A DNA stretch of 64,000 nucleotides, taken from assembly GCF_011045215.1 (NCBI RefSeq), contig NZ_CP049201.1. One strand, 5' to 3'. Position numbers and translations under genes: made by a program. A model generated the notes under the pieces. It saw only the letters and a list, made by a program, of their open reading frames with translations. It did not search any database and was not told where the DNA came from. Of the stretch, positions 52,080-61,832 are shown piece after piece; the first letter of the stretch is position 1; each line of letters begins with the position of its first letter. This stretch comes from Escherichia coli (GTDB lineage: Bacteria; Pseudomonadota; Gammaproteobacteria; Enterobacterales; Enterobacteriaceae).

Positions 52080-52172
52080 ATACTGTAGTTATCAGGCGTG
52101 GCGCTGGGTTGCGGGGTGTTAGTGGGATTATATCCGGCTGTGTATCCGGTCGGGGTGATTGGTCTGTATAGC

Positions 52173-52198
52173 AAAACCCGGCGCGGGGCCGGGTGAAC
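52173..52198 (-). terminator. Rho-independent terminator after island gene 52201-52764
   Basis: Minus strand reads ACCCGGCcccgcGCCGGGTTTTG; an identical hairpin recurs at 53821-53843. Confidence 0.55.
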
Positions 52199-52200
52199 TA

Positions 52201-52764
52201 TCATTCAGGGAACAAGTTGATTTGAAGCAAACTGCCAATGTATTTACCAGTGCTTTTAATTTTTCGCTTTGATGGCTTACACGAATTCAGGTTGACACCA
52301 GCCTGGCTAGATATTGGCTTGTATTGCCGCTCCGCCAGTACGATCAGGTCTGCCGCGTCTTTTAGCTTTCCATCGTTAGCCAGTTCCAATGCTCGATCCG
52401 CCATTTGCCCGCATTGTTGAATCAGCTTAAGTTGCGATACCTCCAGTCGCAATTGCTGGATTCGTTCTACCACTTTCGCCCTAATGCGCTTAGTTTCACG
52501 CATTCCCATTCTTAATGCCTGGTTGCCAGTAAGTGAGTAAACCTCTTTTTCTTTCCTGAAGTTTGCGGCTTTACCGTCAGCTTGGACGCGCATTTTATGC
52601 GCTTCCAAGAATTCGCCCTCCAATTCATCCCTGATCTTCGCGTTGAATCTGTCGTTCTTGAGTTCATTTAACCCTTCCGCCTTGCGGATCTGGTTGATTA
52701 ACTCCAACAATTCATCACTGCGGATACGCCACTCGCTATCAACCTGTACCAAGTCAAACATGTT
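52201..52764 (-). CDS. Hypothetical island protein (about 187 aa from ATG MFDLVQVD; track ORF extends to a TTG at 52854)
   Basis: ORF track; SD-like gggag upstream of the internal ATG; coiled-coil-rich; no confident family assignment. Confidence 0.5.
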   Translation of the reverse strand, partial: NMFDLVQVDSEWRIRSDELLELINQIRKAEGLNELKNDRFNAKIRDELEGEFLEAHKMRVQADGKAANFRKEKEVYSLTGNQALRMGMRETKRIRAKVVERIQQLRLEVSQLKLIQQCGQMADRALELANDGKLKDAADLIVLAERQYKPISSQAGVNLNSCKPSKRKIKSTGKYIGSLLQINLFPE

Positions 52765-52920
52765 GTTGCTCCCGTTTTGCTGCCATAGGGCAACGGCTCG
52801 CCAGCCTTTATCACCTCCTTTAGTTGTTGCGATTCTTAACTGAATGGTTATCAAAACGCTGCGTTAATATCATTGATATGTATCAAATTTGTTTTGTGAC
52901 GCGACAATGCCTTGTGAATA

Positions 52921-52948
52921 TCAATAAAAAACCCAGCGCTATGGCTGG
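52921..52948 (-). terminator. Rho-independent terminator after island gene 52995-53723
   Basis: Minus strand CCCAGCcatagcGCTGGG followed by TTTTTTATTG. Confidence 0.55.
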
Positions 52949-52994
52949 GCTTCTCTTGATGGCTGGTTTTGTAGCTAATCGTTGGCTTTAAGGG

Positions 52995-53723
52995 TTAAGC
53001 AACAATATTAATCCCGCTCCTTGTCGCTGCCTCTTTGGCAATTTTCCCCTCGTCCTCCAGTTTAGCTAACGCCTTGTACATCCAGTGGCGGCCCGGTGCG
53101 CCATGCAGCTTGCCATCTTTGCCGATCTTACCGAACGCATGTAACGCCAAATCGTCGATAGTCCCCTTGTATCCGCCTTGCTCCTTAAGCCATTGCTCAA
53201 GCTGTTCTACTTTGAATTTTGCCGGACGTCCGCCAGCCGCTTTTTGTTGTTTAGCTGGTTCTTCTGCAATATCGCTTTTGTTGTTTAAGTCCGTCATGAC
53301 TGGTTCTCCTACAATAGCGTCGCCCTTGGTCTCGATTTGTTGATTAACTGGTTTGTCTACAATATCGATTTTGTTGTTTAGCTGGTTTTTCAACATATCA
53401 ATCTCAGCCTTTAGCGCCTCGTTTTCTCTGGCTAGTTCTTCGCAACGCTTGATAAATTTTTGTTCCATGCCGTCCGGGCTATCAACGTGCGCCGTACCCA
53501 TTACGATCTTCCCGTTGCTATCGAAGATGACAGCTTGCCAACCGACTGCGGCGAGCATTTTAAACACATCATCAGCGGTCTTGTTTGTTGTATCGCGACG
53601 CCCTTTAAACTTGTGGCTAGCAGCGCCTTTGCCTTTGAAGCCCATTGCCTCAGCGACATCTTGCCGCGTCATCTTGCGAGCGCGCTTGTTCATGCCTAAC
53701 TCAACCCAATCCATGTATTCCAT
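52995..53723 (-). CDS. Hypothetical island protein, basic N-terminus plus coiled-coil and internal repeats
   Basis: 242-aa ORF; repeated NNKIDIVDKPVNQQ / NNKSDIAEEPAKQQ segments, mirrored by imperfect DNA tandem repeats around 53280-53400. Confidence 0.55.
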   Translation of the reverse strand: MEYMDWVELGMNKRARKMTRQDVAEAMGFKGKGAASHKFKGRRDTTNKTADDVFKMLAAVGWQAVIFDSNGKIVMGTAHVDSPDGMEQKFIKRCEELARENEALKAEIDMLKNQLNNKIDIVDKPVNQQIETKGDAIVGEPVMTDLNNKSDIAEEPAKQQKAAGGRPAKFKVEQLEQWLKEQGGYKGTIDDLALHAFGKIGKDGKLHGAPGRHWMYKALAKLEDEGKIAKEAATRSGINIVA

Positions 53724-53820
53724 ACATTACCTCATTTTGTCGCTAAACGTTTTGCTTTCTAATTTATCAACAAAAAAGCGGGTGATGGTAGCCGCTTTGA
53801 TGGGGAAGTTGACAGGGATC

Positions 53821-53843
53821 AAAAACCCGGCGCGGGGCCGGGT
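53821..53843 (-). terminator. Rho-independent terminator (second copy of the 52173 hairpin)
   Basis: Minus strand ACCCGGCcccgcGCCGGGTTTTTGATC, just downstream of gene 53861-54091. Confidence 0.55.
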
Positions 53844-53860
53844 ATTAGCAAGTTAGATGA

Positions 53861-54091
53861 TTACTGGGTATCGCTGTCAGAAAGTAGTCCAATTGATTTA
53901 AAGAATTTCATCACATCCTGATAGCGATACATGACGCCCCGCCCGGTTCCCAGCACATCAACAGGGTCGGGGAATGGAGTTCCGTTCTGTTCCCATTTCT
54001 TACGCCACGAATAAAACGTTCCCCTGCTAATTCCGCCCAGCATCCGGCAGATGGCAGGGCGGCTAAGAAGGATTACTTCATTTTTATCCAT
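53861..54091 (-). CDS. AlpA/excisionase-like HTH DNA-binding protein
   Basis: 76 aa; LSRPAICRMLGGISRGTFYSWRKKW resembles the AlpA-family HTH. Confidence 0.5.
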   Translation of the reverse strand: MDKNEVILLSRPAICRMLGGISRGTFYSWRKKWEQNGTPFPDPVDVLGTGRGVMYRYQDVMKFFKSIGLLSDSDTQ

Positions 54092-54110
54092 TGTTTAATC
54101 TCCCGTGTGT

Positions 54111-54299
54111 TTATTTTGCGTAGATTAAGGCAAATGCTCTTTTGGCTTTGCTTAGTTCGTATTCGCGTTTTTCTATGATTGCCATCAGTTCTTGTGCGGT
54201 GGCTGGCACGCCCGCTCTTATCAGCGCAATCTTAGTATCCATAGCGCACACTCTTTCACGCACCATATCGAAGATAATTTCCGCTCTATCGTGTTTCAT
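54111..54299 (-). CDS. Small hypothetical island protein (62 aa)
   Basis: ORF track; co-directional and closely spaced with the AlpA-like gene. Confidence 0.4.
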   Translation of the reverse strand: MKHDRAEIIFDMVRERVCAMDTKIALIRAGVPATAQELMAIIEKREYELSKAKRAFALIYAK

Positions 54300-54502
54300 G
54301 ATTTCACCTCATATTTGTTGCTAAACCTTGTAAACCCTTGTTTGACTACAAAATACACCTGGTTAAGCGACTGATAAAATGATTTAGGTCAATTTATTGG
54401 TTGATGATTTATGTCTGATTGGATTTGTCTACAAATGGCAGGTTAGTCAACAAATGATGAAACCAGGGAATGGCGGTTATAATGTCAGCGGGGATTGTGA
54501 GA

Positions 54503-54545
54503 AAGGCCCGGGTAGGTTGCTAACTGCCTGGGCCTTTATTTTTGG
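54503..54545 (+). terminator. Plus-strand rho-independent terminator candidate inside the minus-strand gene array
   Basis: aaaggcccgggtagg..cctgggccttt hairpin (about 14 bp stem with two G-U pairs) followed by atttttgg; on the minus strand no U-tract follows. Confidence 0.45.
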
Positions 54546-54648
54546 CGCGTGTACGTGAAATCTGGAAAATTTGCAGGGTAGTTGTTGAGGGATTTTTCGC
54601 GTAGGAGCGTGAAGGGTCCGCCAGTCATCGCCCTGACGTAGCGGTGAA

Positions 54649-55050
54649 TTACTTGCGAGGCTCACCCATCGGCCAGGCACCTTCATTGCGACGATAACCA
54701 ATCCGGTACTCTTCCGGCAGCGGCAAGCCCTGCTCACGATATGGACGCAGATCGAAGCCAAAAACAGGATCGTCGTCGTAGGCGAGGAATAGCCCGGCAG
54801 GCTCTGCCACGCGTTCGATAATCAGTTCCCCATCTTCAACGAAGAAGATCAGATTATCGCGAAAGTCCGTTACCTCACTGACGTGATAACATTCGGCATG
54901 TGCGTCCAGCCAGGCTTCTCGGTATTCCTGAATCTCGGCTTCTGACCATGTTGAAACAGGACGCTCCCAAATTCCCAGGCTGGATTTGCCCTGGCGGGAG
55001 AATAATTTTGCCTCTTTGCTCTGCTCTGGTTTTCTGTTTAAAAAGCTCAT
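54649..55050 (-). CDS. Hypothetical island protein (133 aa)
   Basis: ORF track; SD ggagaa upstream of ATG; start overlaps a TAA of an upstream open frame (TAATG). Confidence 0.5.
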   Translation of the reverse strand: MSFLNRKPEQSKEAKLFSRQGKSSLGIWERPVSTWSEAEIQEYREAWLDAHAECYHVSEVTDFRDNLIFFVEDGELIIERVAEPAGLFLAYDDDPVFGFDLRPYREQGLPLPEEYRIGYRRNEGAWPMGEPRK

Positions 55051-55186
55051 TATTCTTCTCCTTTGAACGGATTGTTCTTGCTCTCTAATAACTTAGCGCG
55101 ACCCAGTAACGTCCGGGCAAGCGCCTCCGCCTTCCTTAGCCTAAGCCCTGCGTCTTCTGCGTCCAGATCTACATTCCTGATAGCCT

Positions 55187-55450
55187 CTACAGCCTGCTCC
55201 GCTGCGTCCGGGCGTGAATCCACTTAAATATGCCGATATGCTCACGAAAGTCTGGATGCTCATATTGCCAGCGGCAGATTGTTCTGAAGCTCGGCATGTC
55301 AGGCATGTTGCCAATCTCTCTGAGACTATGGCCTTCAGCTACCAGCAAGCAGATTTCTTCAGCGATAGCGACCCCATACTTAGCGCTTTTTCTGCTTAAA
55401 CTTGTGACATCAACAGGTAAGTTATTGATTTCTTTATCATCACCCTTCAT
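55187..55450 (-). CDS. Hypothetical HTH-like island protein (87 aa)
   Basis: ORF track; SLREIGNMPDMPSFRTICRWQ segment is HTH-like; preceded by the 11-bp repeat array. Confidence 0.45.
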   Translation of the reverse strand: MKGDDKEINNLPVDVTSLSRKSAKYGVAIAEEICLLVAEGHSLREIGNMPDMPSFRTICRWQYEHPDFREHIGIFKWIHARTQRSRL

Positions 55451-55522
55451 AATTACCCCCGAATTGATAGCGAATTGATAGCGAATTACCCCGAATTACC
55501 CCCGAATTACCCCCGAATCACC
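55450..55522. repeat. Array of seven 10-11 bp direct repeats (gaattaccccc / gaattgatagc)
   Basis: taattaccccc, gaattgatagc x2, gaattacccc, gaattaccccc x2, gaatcacc, read directly from sequence. Confidence 0.9.
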
Positions 55523-55527
55523 ATCAT

Positions 55528-55809
55528 TTAACCCTCGCCTACGTCTGCGTCGATGCTTGCTAACTGGCTGTGTAGATCGCGTTCAATCATTTTTACCTTT
55601 TTCACAAAATCCCTTTCCTCGGCGGTGGCGGGCGCGCCCTGGGCTATGTTTTTCGTGAGGTCGTGGAAAGTGCCGAAAACATAAAGGGAGAACAGCCTTA
55701 ATTGTTGCCGCTTCATTGGCAAATCACTGTTGCTATGTTTGATCTCAGCGACGCCTTTCGAAATAACACGGGCCATCCCATGACAAATTCTTAACGTAAG
55801 CGCAGACAT
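55528..55809 (-). CDS. Hypothetical island protein (93 aa)
   Basis: ORF track only. Confidence 0.4.
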   Translation of the reverse strand: MSALTLRICHGMARVISKGVAEIKHSNSDLPMKRQQLRLFSLYVFGTFHDLTKNIAQGAPATAEERDFVKKVKMIERDLHSQLASIDADVGEG

Positions 55810-55930
55810 GATATTTACTCCCCGACTGGTATAATGAACGTGGTTTTAAACGTTGCTATTTGCTAACCATTTAATCTGTTAACTCAATTTCGCATTGTTG
55901 GCCCGGCACGAACACCGGGCTTTTCTTTAC

Positions 55931-56272
55931 CTATTCGAAATAGCTTCCAATATCCGGTGTCCGGGTATCAGTTTTCCGGGTCGGCTCGAAGTACGATTCC
56001 AGATCCGGCGTTTTCGGCCCACGCTGGGCGTTGGCGGCGGGTTGCTTTTCTTCTGGCTGTTCCGGCTGTTTACTACCAAATCGGCGCTCCAGTTGGTCCA
56101 TCAGCACTACCATCATTTCCTGGACCAGCTTTTCATCGGCTTTATCAAGGTTCTCCAATACCATCGCCATCCCTTTGCGGAATTTAAGCTCAGCGTCGTC
56201 CGGTTCCGGTGCTGATTCGTTTGCTTTAACTGCCAGGGCGATCCGGCGTTTTGCTTCATCCAAAAAATTCAT
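55931..56272 (-). CDS. Hypothetical acidic island protein ending in SYFE motifs (113 aa)
   Basis: ORF track; C-terminus DLESYFEPTRKTDTRTPDIGSYFE. Confidence 0.5.
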   Translation of the reverse strand: MNFLDEAKRRIALAVKANESAPEPDDAELKFRKGMAMVLENLDKADEKLVQEMMVVLMDQLERRFGSKQPEQPEEKQPAANAQRGPKTPDLESYFEPTRKTDTRTPDIGSYFE

Positions 56273-56277
56273 TTTGT

Positions 56278-56721
56278 TTATTCCCCCATGTGGAAATAGT
56301 CATCTAAGCGGCGATTAAACTCGTCGCTGCCATCGAAATATTCACGGATACTTTTATTGACCAGATCATCACCGTCGAAATACTGGCGCGTGAAATCGTC
56401 CAATTCCCCATCGAAGTATTGACGTGTGAAATCGTCTAATTCCCCTTCAAAATATTGACGCGCATCAGGCGCTCTGTTTGGCGCTGTAGCAATCTCAGAT
56501 TGATTGCCCTGTAACTTATCGACGTTTGCTAAATACACGCCCAGTGAGCTGTTTGTTCCCATTACCGCAAGCATTTTCCGGCGATCTGCCATGTTCGGCG
56601 CGAGCGATGATAATTGAGCTTTAATTTTGTCCACTTCCTGATTAACAATACGGTCAATCAGTGGTTGATTCGTGCGAATAATTTCCTGTGCCAACTGGCG
56701 AATATATTCTTTGCGTGTCAT
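56278..56721 (-). CDS. Hypothetical island protein with tandem QYF[ED]GELDDFTR repeats (147 aa)
   Basis: ORF track; encoded by 36-bp tandem DNA repeats at about 56376-56463. Confidence 0.5.
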   Translation of the reverse strand: MTRKEYIRQLAQEIIRTNQPLIDRIVNQEVDKIKAQLSSLAPNMADRRKMLAVMGTNSSLGVYLANVDKLQGNQSEIATAPNRAPDARQYFEGELDDFTRQYFDGELDDFTRQYFDGDDLVNKSIREYFDGSDEFNRRLDDYFHMGE

Positions 56722-56739
56722 TTCTTATCTCCGTTCATC

Positions 56740-57123
56740 TCATTTCTGTAAAAAACCCATACCGTGGCCCAGGCGATTTGAAATTTTCCCGGCAAGCATC
56801 CGGCGAATATGTTTTTCGTTGATGATGTCGTGAGTGACCGGATCTTCACCTTTCATACATTCCGGCATCTGGTCAAACAATACGGAAGCGCCTTCATCAA
56901 TAATCTCAGTTAAGACTGCTGGCAGCATATTAATGATGCGTTCTGCTTCGTCGTTCATTGCTTTATCGAACGCTTTTTTATCCATTGCTTCGGCGGATGG
57001 TTTGTAATTGTCGCCAGTCAGGTTAAGGTAAGTGTTGTTTGGGTGATACATGGCATTCACTCCTTTTACTTTGATTGTTGCGATTTCTTTGTTTTTGTTA
57101 ATTGTGGTGCCTTTGACTTTCAT
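56740..57123 (-). CDS. Hypothetical island protein (127 aa)
   Basis: ORF track; ATGA start/stop overlap with the upstream HNH-like gene. Confidence 0.45.
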   Translation of the reverse strand: MKVKGTTINKNKEIATIKVKGVNAMYHPNNTYLNLTGDNYKPSAEAMDKKAFDKAMNDEAERIINMLPAVLTEIIDEGASVLFDQMPECMKGEDPVTHDIINEKHIRRMLAGKISNRLGHGMGFLQK

Positions 57124-57539
57124 GCTGCTTCTTCCTTCAATAATTGTGGCAATTTGCCTGTTAGTTCGATTTCTTCATTAATAGATGCAAGTAACTGTCT
57201 CAGTTTGCGATGTAATAGCTGGTGACGCTCTCTCGGCATTTTTACCAGGTTGCTTAAGCGGTTATTCTGCGGATCGTAGTCCCGGTGATGGATATCATAT
57301 TTTCGCTCATCGTAAACACCGTAGCACCATAACCAGGCAGCCTTTTCTATTGTCATGCAGGTACGTTTTCCGTTGCTTAAACAAATGGTTATACTCAGGT
57401 GACCGCGATGTTTTTCGTTTAAGCTGCCTTTAATTACCTGGCCTGTGCTGCGGTTGTGAAATAAACCAGTTTCAGGGTCGTAGTGATATTTCTGTCGTAA
57501 TATATCAACTGATAACCGTAGTCTTGTAAGATTGTCCAT
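57120..57539 (-). CDS. HNH-family endonuclease-like protein
   Basis: 139 aa; AAWLWCYGVYDERKYDIHHRDYDPQNNRLSNL resembles the phage HNH_3 pattern (from memory). Confidence 0.55.
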   Translation of the reverse strand: MDNLTRLRLSVDILRQKYHYDPETGLFHNRSTGQVIKGSLNEKHRGHLSITICLSNGKRTCMTIEKAAWLWCYGVYDERKYDIHHRDYDPQNNRLSNLVKMPRERHQLLHRKLRQLLASINEEIELTGKLPQLLKEEAA

Positions 57540-57571
57540 GATGTTCTACCTCAATGTGATTGCTGTGTTAA

Positions 57572-57757
57572 TTATCTTTCTTCTTGTGGCCTATTCAGCC
57601 AGGCCTCGATCTCGCTACGCCAGAATAATAAACGACAATTTCGCGGCGTAAATGGTTGGGGTATTGTCTTATCTTTTAATAGCCATCTTCGAATCGTTCT
57701 TGTTGATACCCCCGCTATTAATGCGAAAGCTCGCAGATCTATAACTTCATCTCTCAT
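57572..57757 (-). CDS. AlpA-family transcriptional regulator
   Basis: Internal ATG with SD gaggt; MRDEVIDLRAFALIAGVSTRTIRRWL...LFWRSEIEAWL matches the AlpA HTH signature; the track's N-terminal extension is low-complexity repeat translation. Confidence 0.6.
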   Translation of the reverse strand: MRDEVIDLRAFALIAGVSTRTIRRWLLKDKTIPQPFTPRNCRLLFWRSEIEAWLNRPQEER

Positions 57758-57780
57758 GTTCTTACCTCGATTAAAAAGGA

Positions 57781-57839
57781 CCGCCCCCAGGGAAAGAAGA
57801 AAGAGGAAAGAGGAAAGAGGAAAAACTTCCTGGAGGCGG
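57781..57839. repeat. Homopurine heptamer repeat (GAAAGAR x4) inside an 11-bp inverted repeat
   Basis: ccgcccccagg [agggaaagaagaaagaggaaagaggaaagaggaaaaa] cttcctggaggcgg; 24-82 nt upstream of the AlpA-like start codon. Confidence 0.85.
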
Positions 57840-58537
57840 GTAATTCGGATTCCTTGAATCAATATCCCATGTGATACTTAATATTATAAAGGGCGGCGGG
57901 CTATGTCGCTATTTTTGCCATAGTGTGACACCATTAATTTATTAACAAAAAGTGCTATTTATTAAATCTTTTTTCGGCAGGTGCAAGAAAAATAATTGCG
58001 ACACGGTAGGGTAGCGGGCGATAATAATCATGTAAGGAGTAGCCACCTTACGCCTCCAAATGTGATCGATAAAAATAATAGTCTCAATTCTTTCTCCCGC
58101 TTCTCGGCGGTTTTTTTGCCTGCAATCACACATCAAAAAAACACATCGAATTGATATGCCTTTAAAACGCAATATAACGCATTTTGACGGCCTTAATTTT
58201 TGCCTATCCACTCGGAAGCGTAAGCCTGTTTTGATTCGTCTGGCGTGGAATGGTGCGGCGGTAATATCAGATCTCAGCGTTCTGTGTGGTGGGATGGAAT
58301 AGCCTGGCAGGATCTGCGTGTGATTTCATTCATCCAACCTTGGATGAATGGTCCGATCTGGTCAGTAGTCCGGCACAAATAAAAAGCGCCTGCGGGCGTA
58401 GCAGACGCTTTGTGTACAGGCTTATCAGTACGGGATGTGCACGAATGATTATACCACCCTCAGAAAAACGTTTGCTTTTGCACTTAAACGGATAAGTGGT
58501 ATTTCTTGGTCTTCATTGGTTTTAGCTCACCATAGGC

Positions 58538-58765
58538 TCATTTAGGTGCGCCCCTGTCGATAATTCGGTACATGTTCTCGGTATATCTCCCGTTAATCAC
58601 CGTTCTGGTAACAACAATCACACCGTTTTCCTCCAGAAAGGCAATGGCCCGCTTCACTCCCTGGCGGCTTACACCGGATAGCTGCGCCAGCCTGTCAATG
58701 GAGATGTTGTATTTGTCCGGCTGGCTTGTCAGGATCTGGAATACCGCTCGTGCTGTTTTCGTCAT
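58538..58765 (-). CDS. Winged-helix/HTH DNA-binding protein (75 aa), candidate island regulator
   Basis: ISIDRLAQLSGVSRQGVKRAIAFLEENGVIV HTH-like segment; divergent from the plus-strand cargo module. Confidence 0.5.
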   Translation of the reverse strand: MTKTARAVFQILTSQPDKYNISIDRLAQLSGVSRQGVKRAIAFLEENGVIVVTRTVINGRYTENMYRIIDRGAPK

Positions 58766-59037
58766 GGCAAAAACTCATTGAAATTGGATACCCTTAGAAC
58801 GCTCTCAAACGCTCCGTAATGCGATGAGAATTTTACCTAAGCAAGTGTAGCTCTTTATTAGTTTTATGATGCCGTAGGCCGATAGAAGGTGCGCTCTCTG
58901 AAGTTTCATTGTCTATCAGTGGTGGGTAATGCTGCCTTTACTATTGGCGTCAAGAAAATCACTGGTGTAGATTGGGCGAATAGTTTACTATTCAAACAAG
59001 GCACAATGGCCTTAGCGGATTGATGTCAGGAGATACC

Positions 59038-59385
59038 ATGTCAAAAATAGTTACTTTGTTTGCGACTAAGCGAGAAGGGAAATCCCTTTCTGTGCGCACT
59101 CGTAAGCCAAAAGCTATGACTGGCTTGCGTAAAACAAATCGTCTGACGCATCTTGACGCGTTAGCGTATCGACTAGGATACCAGTTGGTGCGCGGTAAAA
59201 GTGTCATGTTTCGCTACACTGCTACTCTCGATCACGAAGAAAACAAAGTGATGAATGCGGCCTCGCCTATGGCTGTACCACGAGTAAAAAAAATGACGTT
59301 CACACAAGCGTGTGATTTATCAAAAGATTTATTCGATTCACGAGAAGAACGCTTAAAGAGTGTAAGCTTTGATGGTCCAGAATGA
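59038..59385 (+). CDS. Hypothetical basic protein (115 aa), candidate antitoxin or partner of downstream gene
   Basis: ATG at 59038 with SD aggaga 5 nt upstream; stop overlaps the downstream start by 14 nt; AT-rich. Confidence 0.5.
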   Translation: MSKIVTLFATKREGKSLSVRTRKPKAMTGLRKTNRLTHLDALAYRLGYQLVRGKSVMFRYTATLDHEENKVMNAASPMAVPRVKKMTFTQACDLSKDLFDSREERLKSVSFDGPE

Positions 59386-59887
59386 ATTTATTGGTAAGGT
59401 CTACAGTGATAACAAGTTTAAAACAAACGATGAATTAAAGAGCTTTAAGGATTCGTTTATTTATCATTGGAGATATGGACATCATCCTGATTTTGGAAAG
59501 GATACTCTTTTCCATAAACCCCCGTGTGTATATCCTATCCATTTACGTAAAGTCCATGTAAATATTGGTCTTTATACCAATCAGTACGGCTATAGCGGGA
59601 CAGAACAATGCTGGGATGACTGGTCTACTGGTCGTTATGGTCCCGGTGGTTTCGAAAAAGTTACCCCTACATCTGATGCTTATCTTATATACGCTGTATG
59701 TAAAAATAGAAATGCTGGCGTGTTAGACTTCTGGTTTCCTCCCGCACACAAAAACGCTGAGTTCGAATCCTCTGTACAGTTTGTGGCTGAGATGGCTGAT
59801 AAGTTTTATGAGTCTATCAAGGCGGACCCGATGCCGCGCGATCAGAATCCTTGGCATACGGGGTATATAGTTAAAAAACCAGCCTGA
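59372..59887 (+). CDS. YafO-like toxin-domain candidate (171 aa)
   Basis: FIYHWRYGHHPDFGKDTLF...HLRKVHVN...SDAYLIYAV resembles remembered YafO motifs (FISYKRDG..PDTFGRDALY, HIHL, AHLVYC); family assignment unverified. Confidence 0.45.
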   Translation: MVQNEFIGKVYSDNKFKTNDELKSFKDSFIYHWRYGHHPDFGKDTLFHKPPCVYPIHLRKVHVNIGLYTNQYGYSGTEQCWDDWSTGRYGPGGFEKVTPTSDAYLIYAVCKNRNAGVLDFWFPPAHKNAEFESSVQFVAEMADKFYESIKADPMPRDQNPWHTGYIVKKPA

Positions 59888-60438
59888 TCCACGCAATACT
59901 GATTGTTTTTGGCCTTGTATGGTGTGGTCTGATTTGAGGCAAAATTATTTAATCCCTTAAAAAACTAACTTCAAAAGACTAAAACCAGGGGGATGGTCCC
60001 TCTCGCTCCGCTCCAGGTACCATCCCTGTCGGGATGGGTTTATTGTAGAGTTAAAATTAATTACTCACATCGTCACACCTTGCGAAAGTTTTGCTCAATT
60101 ATCATTCAAACATAGCACAAAAAATATTCGATTTAGTTAGTGTGCACTGACTTTTTTATCAATTTACTTTCATTCGAAAGTCATGGGTTAAATATTAATC
60201 ATCTGGCTGTGGCACGCATGGATTCACCGAGGGTATTTTGGACCATTTGGTCAAAATTCATAAGTACATGATTTCATGGTGATTTATTTTTCTGTATCTT
60301 GCTTTCATTCGAAAGTGGAAACGAAGAATTGGCAATTTATTGATTCAGATCATTGACATTGCATATTTGTGGCGGTTGTCACGGTTGTTTTTTGAGCGCT
60401 TCAACCGTCGATATTGAGTATAAACCCGGCCTTATAGT

Positions 60439-61644
60439 TCACGGTTCAAGTGGATTACCGTCACCAGCCAATATTGAATCAATAGCGTCGGCGTAATCCT
60501 GCATCATTGCTCGCCGTTGCTTCAGGTAGGCCGCCTGGTTATAAACGCCGCGCACACCTTTCGGGACGTGGGCCAATTGGATTTCGATCCAGTCTGGTGA
60601 GTATCTGCCAGACTCATTAAGCGCCGTTGAAAAGGTGGTCCGCCAGCCATGACCAGTGGCAATGGATTTATAGCCGATCCTCTCAAGCGCCTTCAGTATC
60701 GCGCTGGCTGAAAGTGGCTTATCCATGAATCGACCAGGGAAGACGAAAGCACTGTATCCGCTCCTTGTAAACTGGTCCTGTAATAGCTCCACCGCCTGCC
60801 GTGATAGCGGGACCACATGCGGGCGGCGGGCCTTCATGACTTCAGCGGGCAATGTGATTGTTGCGTCCTCCAGGTTTATCCATTCCCAACGGCACAAACG
60901 CAGTTCTGCGGTCCTTAATGCCGTTAATATAAGCAAACGTATTGCCGTCTGAATCTGGACGCTCCCGGCCCTCTCAAGGGCTTTGTAGAAGGCCGGAATT
61001 TCACTAATCGGTATCCACGCGTTGTGACCAGGTCGGCGGGCCTTCAGTGCCGTATCAAGATCTGCAACCGGATTCCTCGTTACCAGTTCGGTGATAACGG
61101 CAAACTTGAAGATCTCACCGATGCGCTGGCGTAGCTTGCGGGCCTGCTCCGGTGCGGTACGTTCTTTCTTCTGGAGTAATGCCAGCACGTCACGGGCGGT
61201 TATATCGACAATCGACCGCTTGCCAAGTACCGGATAGACGTCTTTTTCTAGGGCCGATCTGACCTGTTTTGCATAGGATTCCGACCACCCTCCAACCCTA
61301 GTAGCAAACCAGTCTTCCGCCACCTTCTTAAATCCTGCCGCCATGTTGAGCGCATCAATGGCTTTTTCCTTGCGGGCTTGTTCCACTGGGTTAATTCCAT
61401 TGGCAATAAGGGATCTGCTCTCCGTGGCGCGCCTGCGTGCTTCTTTGAGTGTGATTAGCGGGTAAACACCAATAGCCTGCAAAAACTCTCGTTTATTCAA
61501 CCAATACCTGAATCGCCAGTATTTCGAACCGTTGGGATGCACCAGCAAAAACAGCCCCGGCGTCAGTGAATCGGTGAGTTTATAGGGCTTGTCCTGCGGC
61601 TGTGCGGCGTCTATGGCCTTTGCTGTGAGTGGTGTCTTGCTCAA
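60439..61644 (-). CDS. intZ: P4-type tyrosine integrase
   Basis: 401-aa ORF; N-terminal arm-binding-like domain plus catalytic region (HGWRTT...RGVYN); at the island edge next to eutB as for CPZ-55 IntZ. Confidence 0.85.
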   Translation of the reverse strand: MSKTPLTAKAIDAAQPQDKPYKLTDSLTPGLFLLVHPNGSKYWRFRYWLNKREFLQAIGVYPLITLKEARRRATESRSLIANGINPVEQARKEKAIDALNMAAGFKKVAEDWFATRVGGWSESYAKQVRSALEKDVYPVLGKRSIVDITARDVLALLQKKERTAPEQARKLRQRIGEIFKFAVITELVTRNPVADLDTALKARRPGHNAWIPISEIPAFYKALERAGSVQIQTAIRLLILTALRTAELRLCRWEWINLEDATITLPAEVMKARRPHVVPLSRQAVELLQDQFTRSGYSAFVFPGRFMDKPLSASAILKALERIGYKSIATGHGWRTTFSTALNESGRYSPDWIEIQLAHVPKGVRGVYNQAAYLKQRRAMMQDYADAIDSILAGDGNPLEP

Positions 61645-61832
61645 AACCGGATACCTTGATTTAACGACTGGATAACCCCGATCATGTATCCGGCGCGTTC
61701 GGTTGCGTTCGGCAGGATAAGTAACGGGCGTATTAAGTGGAACACCTTACAGGACAAGGGCTAACGATGAAATAGAATTGTTTGCAGGCTGTGAGAAATG
61801 TTAATCGTCACTTCTTCCTGAGGGAACGACTT

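Follow-up and report, generated by a model that had tools for sequence, protein, structure and literature searches.

In the staphylococcal phage 80alpha, the last 16-21 residues of the scaffolding protein dock on the capsid protein, and the CpmB protein of SaPI1, whose C-terminal RIIK helix-and-hook is common to the 80alpha scaffold, competes for the same site on the capsid protein and thereby gives rise to small capsids (PMC5644958). In a second case, the Rcm protein of SaPIpT1028 resembles the scaffold of its helper, interacts with the major capsid protein and makes small capsids (PMC12409344). The principle of scaffold-tail mimicry is known from these staphylococcal SaPIs and has so far been shown only in Staphylococcus. 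The EcCICFT073 island carries no capsid morphogenesis genes (PMC6092414). Here we describe two adjacent genes of an Escherichia coli island, o147 and o113, the products of which carry reiterated YF motifs resembling the C-terminus of a head-module protein of siphophages. Judged from the sequences, o147 and o113 may be scaffold-tail mimics that compete for the capsid protein of a helper phage, a reading to which we assign a probability of about 0.5.

The window, i.e., the entire 64-kb stretch of DNA analyzed, contains an island of ∼9.5 kb (roughly positions 52100-61700) inserted between eutA and eutB. Leftward from the integrase gene, the minus strand encodes in order an HTH protein, an AlpA-like protein, an HNH endonuclease, o127, o147, o113, o93, a small terminase (TerS), o133 and regulators, with o147 and o113 upstream of terS on the same strand. 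The features of interest are the following, where coordinates are those of the window unless a contig is named.

60439-61644, minus strand: IntZ integrase, at the island end beside eutB; 99% identical to K-12 IntZ of CPZ-55
57120-57539, minus strand: HNH endonuclease, present in the window and in the related island L007, absent in the related islands L001 and L006
56740-57123, minus strand: o127, upstream in the same operon; its position is conserved in all relatives
56278-56721, minus strand: o147, 147 aa, with a long N-terminal helix, a linker and an acidic tail with five YF[D/E/H] motifs
56443-56508, minus strand: o147 residues 72-93, the linker and first YF motif (…IATAPNRAPDARQYFEG), which align with the C-terminus of the phage head-module protein
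56375-56462, no strand assigned: 36-bp tandem DNA repeat, 2.4 copies, encoding QYF(E/D)GELDDFTR units
55931-56272, minus strand: o113, 113 aa, with a helical N-terminal domain, a Pro/Gln/Thr-rich tail and two PD(L/I)xSYF motifs, the second C-terminal
55934-56047, minus strand: o113 tail, residues 76-113 (…QPAANAQRGPKTPDLESYFEPTRKTDTRTPDIGSYFE, to the stop codon), with two copies of the phage-tail-like motif
55528-55809, minus strand: o93, downstream of o113
55050-55450, minus strand: Sf6 gp1-type small terminase (PHROG 1482), split in the window
L001 8317-10497, L006 5369-7549 and L007 4695-6902, minus strand: tape measure gene of the relatives (phrog_1538)

Owing to the near identity of the integrase with that of K-12, the insertion site is the attachment site of CPZ-55. 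The island is satellite-like in its organization, in that an integrase, an AlpA-like gene and a TerS of its own occur together with a lack of capsid genes. In terms of the features that define PICIs, int and the AlpA-like gene are present and a pri-rep module is not recognised; neither the window nor L001, L006 or L007 contains a recognisable primase or replication protein. The absence of a replication gene, together with the tape measure gene of the relatives, sets the island apart from the described PICIs. Rfam searches gave no match within the island. In the literature searched, we found no report of mobilisation of the eut-site island and nothing on CPZ-55 as a satellite or on o147 and o113.

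Related islands occupy the same eut site in 35 of 5426 complete E. coli genomes, and the same eutA/eutB insertion was found in L001, L006 and L007. Just after o133, these relatives encode a full-length tail tape measure protein of 726-735 aa (E=2e-105 to phrog_1538), and no capsid, portal or tail-tube genes were found in the islands that bear it. The same large gene had also been considered as a primase, an assignment that was rejected. It is unusual for an island of ∼11 kb to bring its own tape measure. The copy in the window has no tape measure gene, owing to a deletion of ∼2.6 kb (gap at 54608/54647), and its terS has a 1-nt deletion near 55209/55210, which leaves ORFs of 87 and 57 aa; from these two losses, the island copy in the window is decaying. 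Intact TerS proteins of 133 aa are encoded in E. coli C41 and OW1E2, and the intact 133-aa TerS of L001 matches the Sf6 gp1 structures 4dzj and 4dyc (E=2.5e-8). The o147 gene product of the window is 100% identical to that of the intact island of strain C41, which lies at 4,069,661-4,082,136 of NZ_CP127252. Instead of homing, the HNH endonuclease may assist in packaging, in the manner of HNH-dependent cos phages.

In a distant relative of 49% identity (contigs L003-L005), the AlpA, o127-like, o147-like and o113-like genes follow one another in the same order, with the Sf6-type TerS and o133-like genes further on, and the YF motifs are kept as well. The K-12 element CPZ-55 (L002) has only the integrase and the TerS-like gene yffO in common with the window island; no YF proteins were found in it, and yffM and yffN stand in their place. 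YffO (L002 6112-6528) is 49% identical to the N-terminal part of the island small terminase, a similarity that places the K-12 "cryptic prophage" CPZ-55 in the same island family.

Several additional features of the island were recorded. On the plus strand near the integrase (59020-59887), ORFs of 121 and 172 aa gave no match in NCBIfam or PADLOC and no tblastn match in L001; the RefSeq annotation of L001 has a YafO-family toxin at the equivalent position. The spacer between o113 and o93 (55808-55930) contains, on the plus strand, a strong promoter-like site (10 of 12 positions matching, with an extended -10), followed after ∼85 nt by a hairpin and a T-run. The core of this spacer (TTAATCTGTTAACTCAATTTCGC) and the hairpin are conserved in L007, in which the flanking genes are substitution-saturated and one stem pair is altered on both sides. 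The spacer has no Rfam match and a fold z-score of only -1.6, and the element could be a small RNA, a protein-binding site or a packaging site. Strong mosaicism marks the eut-site island family. The window and L001 have identical o147 genes, and their adjacent o113 genes differ at a dS of 0.88, while L001 and L006 differ by a single nonsynonymous and no synonymous change in o113, and at a dS of 0.54 in o147; such discordant divergence points to frequent recombination between island variants. Many contigs with o147 or o113 homologues are 8-12 kb long, approximately the size of the island, which may often assemble as its own contig, e.g., when excised, multicopy or repeat-flanked.

The original prediction had described two adjacent ORFs of 147 and 113 aa with reiterated acidic YF tail motifs, encoded in the former by a 36-bp tandem repeat. 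Both ORFs were recovered exactly as described in the ORF list and its translation, the repeat was returned by Tandem Repeats Finder (82% matches), and the motifs are real, five in o147 and two in o113. In o147, the YF pairs are located at residues 90/91, 102/103, 114/115, 128/129 and 142/143, of which the first three lie within 12-residue units, (Q)YF(E/D)GELDDFTR, on the 36-bp repeat; the protein ends in DDYFHMGE. The o113 motifs are TPDLESYFE (within …KTPDLESYFE…; YF at 94/95) and the C-terminal TPDIGSYFE (YF at 111/112). As to the acidity of the tails, the description holds for o147, which is strongly acidic (net -12), and less so for o113, which is mildly acidic (net -2) and rich in Pro, Gln and Thr. 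Each of the two genes is preceded by a Shine-Dalgarno-like sequence, and the gaps to neighbouring genes are 18 nt and 5 nt, with 5 nt between o147 and o113. The AF2 model of o147, of low confidence (pLDDT 59), begins with a long N-terminal helix, continues through a disordered linker and has short helices within the repeats. When all six-frame ORFs of the 64-kb window (87,075 residues) are scanned, the pattern PDxxxYF occurs three times, twice in o113 and once in o147, which exceeds the chance expectation of ∼0.2 (our own calculation from typical residue frequencies).

Homologues of o147 were found in 339 clusters at 90% identity, almost all from E. coli, and those of o113 in 260 clusters, nearly all from the same species. 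Among the matches listed, two YF motifs are kept in 120 of 120 o113 homologues; the C-terminal sequence is SYF plus a final D, E or N in 119 of these and NYFD in the other. Of the 120 o147 homologues listed, 102 have five YF motifs and 18 have four, and forms of 135 and 139 aa are without exactly one 12-residue unit. The comparison of repeat number among homologues, which the original prediction had proposed, thus reveals variation in unit number; the absence of the motifs from homologues, named there as counting against it, was not encountered among the homologues listed, in which the motifs are kept. In an alignment of 16 o147 sequences, including one relative of 49% identity, no substitution occurs at Y90, F91, Y128, F129, Y142 and F143 (motifs 1, 4 and 5) or at F115 of motif 3, and Y114 of motif 3 is almost invariant; motif 2 is part of the unit missing from the short forms. 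Pairwise dN/dS values are 0.10-0.20 for o147 and 0.12-0.21 for o113, at dS values of 0.5-1.4. Both are real genes under purifying selection, and their YF motifs are conserved short linear motifs common to the two proteins.

The family is very narrow, since no more than 8 matches were obtained among 1.84 billion representative proteins, one of them a spurious cadherin-like repeat protein. No significant match to o147 or o113 was found in Pfam, PHROG, NCBIfam, PADLOC or the PDB sequences, and none to the full-length proteins by tblastn among 50,697 phage records. Foldseek searches of the PDB with AF2 models gave nothing at E<=0.001; the models of o147 (pLDDT 59) and of the phage protein discussed below (pLDDT 50) are too poor for fold comparison. 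Cadherin-like or Ca-binding repeats, which are embedded in beta-sandwich domains of ∼100 residues, do not fit: the repeat period is 12-14 residues, the prediction is helical and the only match, to one such protein (P0247), is compositional.

The link to a phage emerged only from a local, relaxed tblastn search of all island proteins against 35 kb of mEp013, a temperate E. coli siphophage. This phage had been chosen independently through the tape measure, as the closest phage relative of the island gene; the tape measure of L007 is 50% identical to that of mEp013. Three matches were obtained. The island TerS is 38% identical to the mEp013 TerS (E=3e-10), the island HNH protein is 31% identical to mEp013_67 (E=8e-4), which is encoded upstream of the mEp013 terminase genes, and both YF motifs of o113 align with the last ten codons of mEp013_75. 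The latter protein, of 423 aa, ends in …GGNKPATPDINNYFA, and its C-terminus (…ATPDINNYFA) holds the single occurrence of PDxxxYF among 40,035 ORF residues in the 35 kb of mEp013. In 119 of 120 mEp013_75 homologues, YF or HF is located <=4 residues from the C-terminus. The main end forms are …ATNAASEGKKGEVPDFNTYF, …AANSAAGGNKPATPDINNYFA and …GTNSAQQQKETGAPNPDEYFK, with …GEVPDFNTYF, …ATPDINNYFA and …GAPNPDEYFK as short forms; for comparison, o113 ends in …QPAANAQRGPKTPDLESYF…TPDIGSYF(D/E).

The likeness extends upstream of the motif itself. The family consensus of o147, …IATNAFTAxQQAPNPR(D/E)YF… (…IATAPNRAPDARQYF… in the window variant), compares with …LGTNSAQQQKETGAPNPDEYFK at the phage C-terminus, and the common pattern spans ∼20 residues, (A/G)(T/A)N(A/S)-x(5-10)-(A/T)P(D/N)xxxYF. 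Parallel variants occur on the two sides, minor ones among the satellites: satellite tails in IPDFNSYFE correspond to phage tails in (V/I)PDFNTYF, and satellite tails in TPDIDNYFN to phage tails in TPDI(N/D)NYFA, the former of this second pair being carried by L007, whose tape measure is closest to that of mEp013. An HMM built from phage tails only ranked o113 and o147 first and second among the 1226 six-frame ORFs of the window, at E-values of 0.17 and 0.19, and hhalign aligned the o147 profile with the phage C-terminus over 26 columns (E=0.006, probability 6%); the brevity of the motif keeps any single statistic of this kind weak. In motifs 2 to 5 of o147 (YFDGELDDFTR), the YF core is all that is common to the phage tail, and the N-terminal domains of o147 and o113 are unrelated to the phage protein. 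Among the 5426 complete E. coli genomes, 35 carry the island, 35 carry an mEp013-like head module and none carries both, a count that is uninformative because the expected overlap is only 0.23.

The gene for mEp013_75 follows those for TerS, TerL, the portal and a MuF-like protein, and immediately precedes the decoration and major capsid genes, the latter being mEp013_77. Its family, phrog_760, is labelled "unknown function" in PHROG; no match to mEp013_75 was found in Pfam, NCBIfam or the PDB, and the paper describing the mEpimmI phages, which are described as prevalent in the human gut, identifies no scaffold (PMC11893012). The AF2 model (pLDDT 50) predicts a long helix at residues 310-376, followed by a disordered tail. 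The position before the decoration and capsid genes, the conservation of the N-terminal domain and the combination of a long helix with a conserved, disordered tail make mEp013_75 a putative scaffold; from gene position and predicted architecture, it is likely a scaffolding or protease-scaffolding protein.

The docking-motif interpretation of the original prediction stands in part. The YF motifs that o147 and o113 share very probably bind a single partner common to both proteins, for which they would compete with some other protein. A partner among the host replication and recombination proteins, the class that the original prediction proposed to screen, is not supported; the match to the C-terminus of a phage head-module protein and the location in a packaging operon make a capsid component of the helper phage the likely one.

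Under scaffold-tail mimicry, o147 and o113 would belong to a phage-satellite-like island, one of the CPZ-55/IntZ family, within the eut operon, and their tails would copy the C-terminal docking tail of the helper's putative scaffold, phrog_760 of mEp013/mEpimmI-type siphophages. Upon induction of the helper, both would be made from the packaging operon of the satellite. Their PDxxxYF and YF motifs would then occupy the procapsid site that normally takes the scaffold tail, most likely on the major capsid protein, and multivalency (two motifs in o113, five in o147) would allow the scaffold to be out-competed by avidity. Helper head assembly would then either be blocked or yield capsids of a redirected size; redirection of capsid size specifically by o147 and o113 carries a lower probability than the mimicry itself. 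The identity of phrog_760 as the scaffold, the binding of its tail to the capsid protein and all of the downstream effects are steps that we infer.

Alternatively, the copied tail could be a capsid-targeting signal, which would load o147 and o113 into helper procapsids as cargo without perturbing assembly, e.g., as acidic proteins that accompany the DNA and act against host defences. The same phage C-terminus match fits such a role, as does the net charge of -12 in the o147 tail, which is reminiscent of DNA-mimic proteins, and in HK97 C-terminal tails are known to target the protease or cargo into procapsids. We nevertheless consider cargo loading unlikely: no similarity to known internal, ejection or anti-restriction proteins was found, a docking motif repeated five times is better explained by competition through avidity than by simple targeting, and proteins that bind the scaffold site are normally expelled when DNA enters.

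A role of o147 and o113 in tail assembly, in which they would serve the tape measure protein of the island family itself as chaperones or adaptors, is suggested by the relatives, in which the full-length tape measure gene is oriented in the same direction only a few genes downstream. However, o93, TerS and o133 intervene, the matched phage protein belongs to the head module and not to the tail module, and there is no frameshift pair of the lambda G/GT type, as the two ORFs do not overlap and have no common N-terminus; we therefore regard this role as quite improbable. Slightly less credible still is the view that the tails represent a non-functional relic of the scaffold gene of a decayed prophage, or a mere compositional likeness of the Ca-binding type (YFxDxDGD). 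CPZ-55 does carry the annotation of a cryptic prophage, decay is evident in the window copy, and one weak match was obtained to a cadherin-like repeat protein with YFSDPDGD (P0247, E=1e-5); against this stand the strong purifying selection, N-terminal domains unrelated to the phage protein, an amplified motif with invariant or nearly invariant YF residues, and a gene order that is kept in the relative of 49% identity. Least probable of all is mimicry of the SSB C-terminus for docking on host replication or recombination proteins, the analogy drawn in the original prediction: the tails do resemble the SSB tip as acidic, aromatic docking peptides, C-terminal in o113, but the tip of SSB-type tails is …DDDIPF, with a terminal Phe, whereas the o113 homologues listed end in D, E or N, the residue pattern differs, the motif together with its linker matches a phage head-module C-terminus, and the genes adjoin terminase genes rather than replication genes.

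With scaffold-tail mimicry as the preferred reading, a broader and more tentative proposal can be formulated, which we hold to be possible though somewhat doubtful. The CPZ-55/IntZ islands at the eut site would constitute an undescribed satellite family that parasitises the mEpimmI siphophages (mEp013/mEp021-type), equipped with its own TerS, sometimes an HNH endonuclease and even a tape measure, and directing two proteins with multiplied copies of the scaffold tail against helper capsid assembly. The K-12 "cryptic prophage" CPZ-55 and its family would then be satellites of common, little-studied gut coliphages, and a function would be provided for two hypothetical proteins that account for hundreds of E. 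coli protein clusters. The reading also predicts a capsid-docking motif, PD(F/I)NxYF, at the C-terminus of phrog_760.

In terms of mechanism, this would be the first case of internal-scaffold mimicry in a Gram-negative satellite, and the first by way of a reiterated short linear motif. It would extend the CpmB principle, in which the satellite copies the docking tail of the scaffold, so that mutation of the capsid protein gives the phage no escape, from staphylococci to enterobacteria in a multivalent short-motif form. The new elements would be the protein family, the Gram-negative host, the mEpimmI helper group and the multiplied form of the short motif.

Several known systems can be compared with the eut island. 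P4 Sid and PLE TcaP are also satellite proteins that act on capsid assembly of the helper, and P4 is likewise an E. coli element (PMC7552001, PMC10002752); they form external cages, do not mimic an internal scaffold tail and have no sequence similarity to o147 and o113. EcCICFT073 is similar as an integrase island of ∼10 kb with an AlpA-like regulator and a TerS-related packaging-specificity protein (PMC6739421, PMC6092414). It differs in that the latter protein is Rpp, whereas the eut island encodes an Sf6 gp1-type TerS and no recognised pri-rep; moreover, the packaging genes of the eut island are located close to the integrase end, and its relatives carry the tape measure gene. No counterpart of o147 or o113 appeared in the papers on Tai tail interference and on Rpp. 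Rcm copies the multi-helical topology of a scaffold, whereas o147 and o113 would copy only a disordered tail of ∼20 residues, in multiplied form.

CpmB (with CpmA), set against the 80alpha scaffold gp46, is a small helical satellite protein with a C-terminus that copies the capsid-binding segment of the scaffold, as proposed for o147 and o113, and its gene likewise precedes the satellite terS in the packaging operon. No homology between o147 or o113 and CpmB was found in PHROG, Pfam or the PDB sequences. CpmB is staphylococcal, whereas o147 and o113, known from sequence alone, belong to a Gram-negative host with an mEpimmI siphophage as the presumed helper. Finally, CpmB bears the RIIK segment in one copy per chain, whereas in the eut island the PDxxxYF or YF motif is distributed over two proteins, with 2 copies in o113 and 5 in o147.
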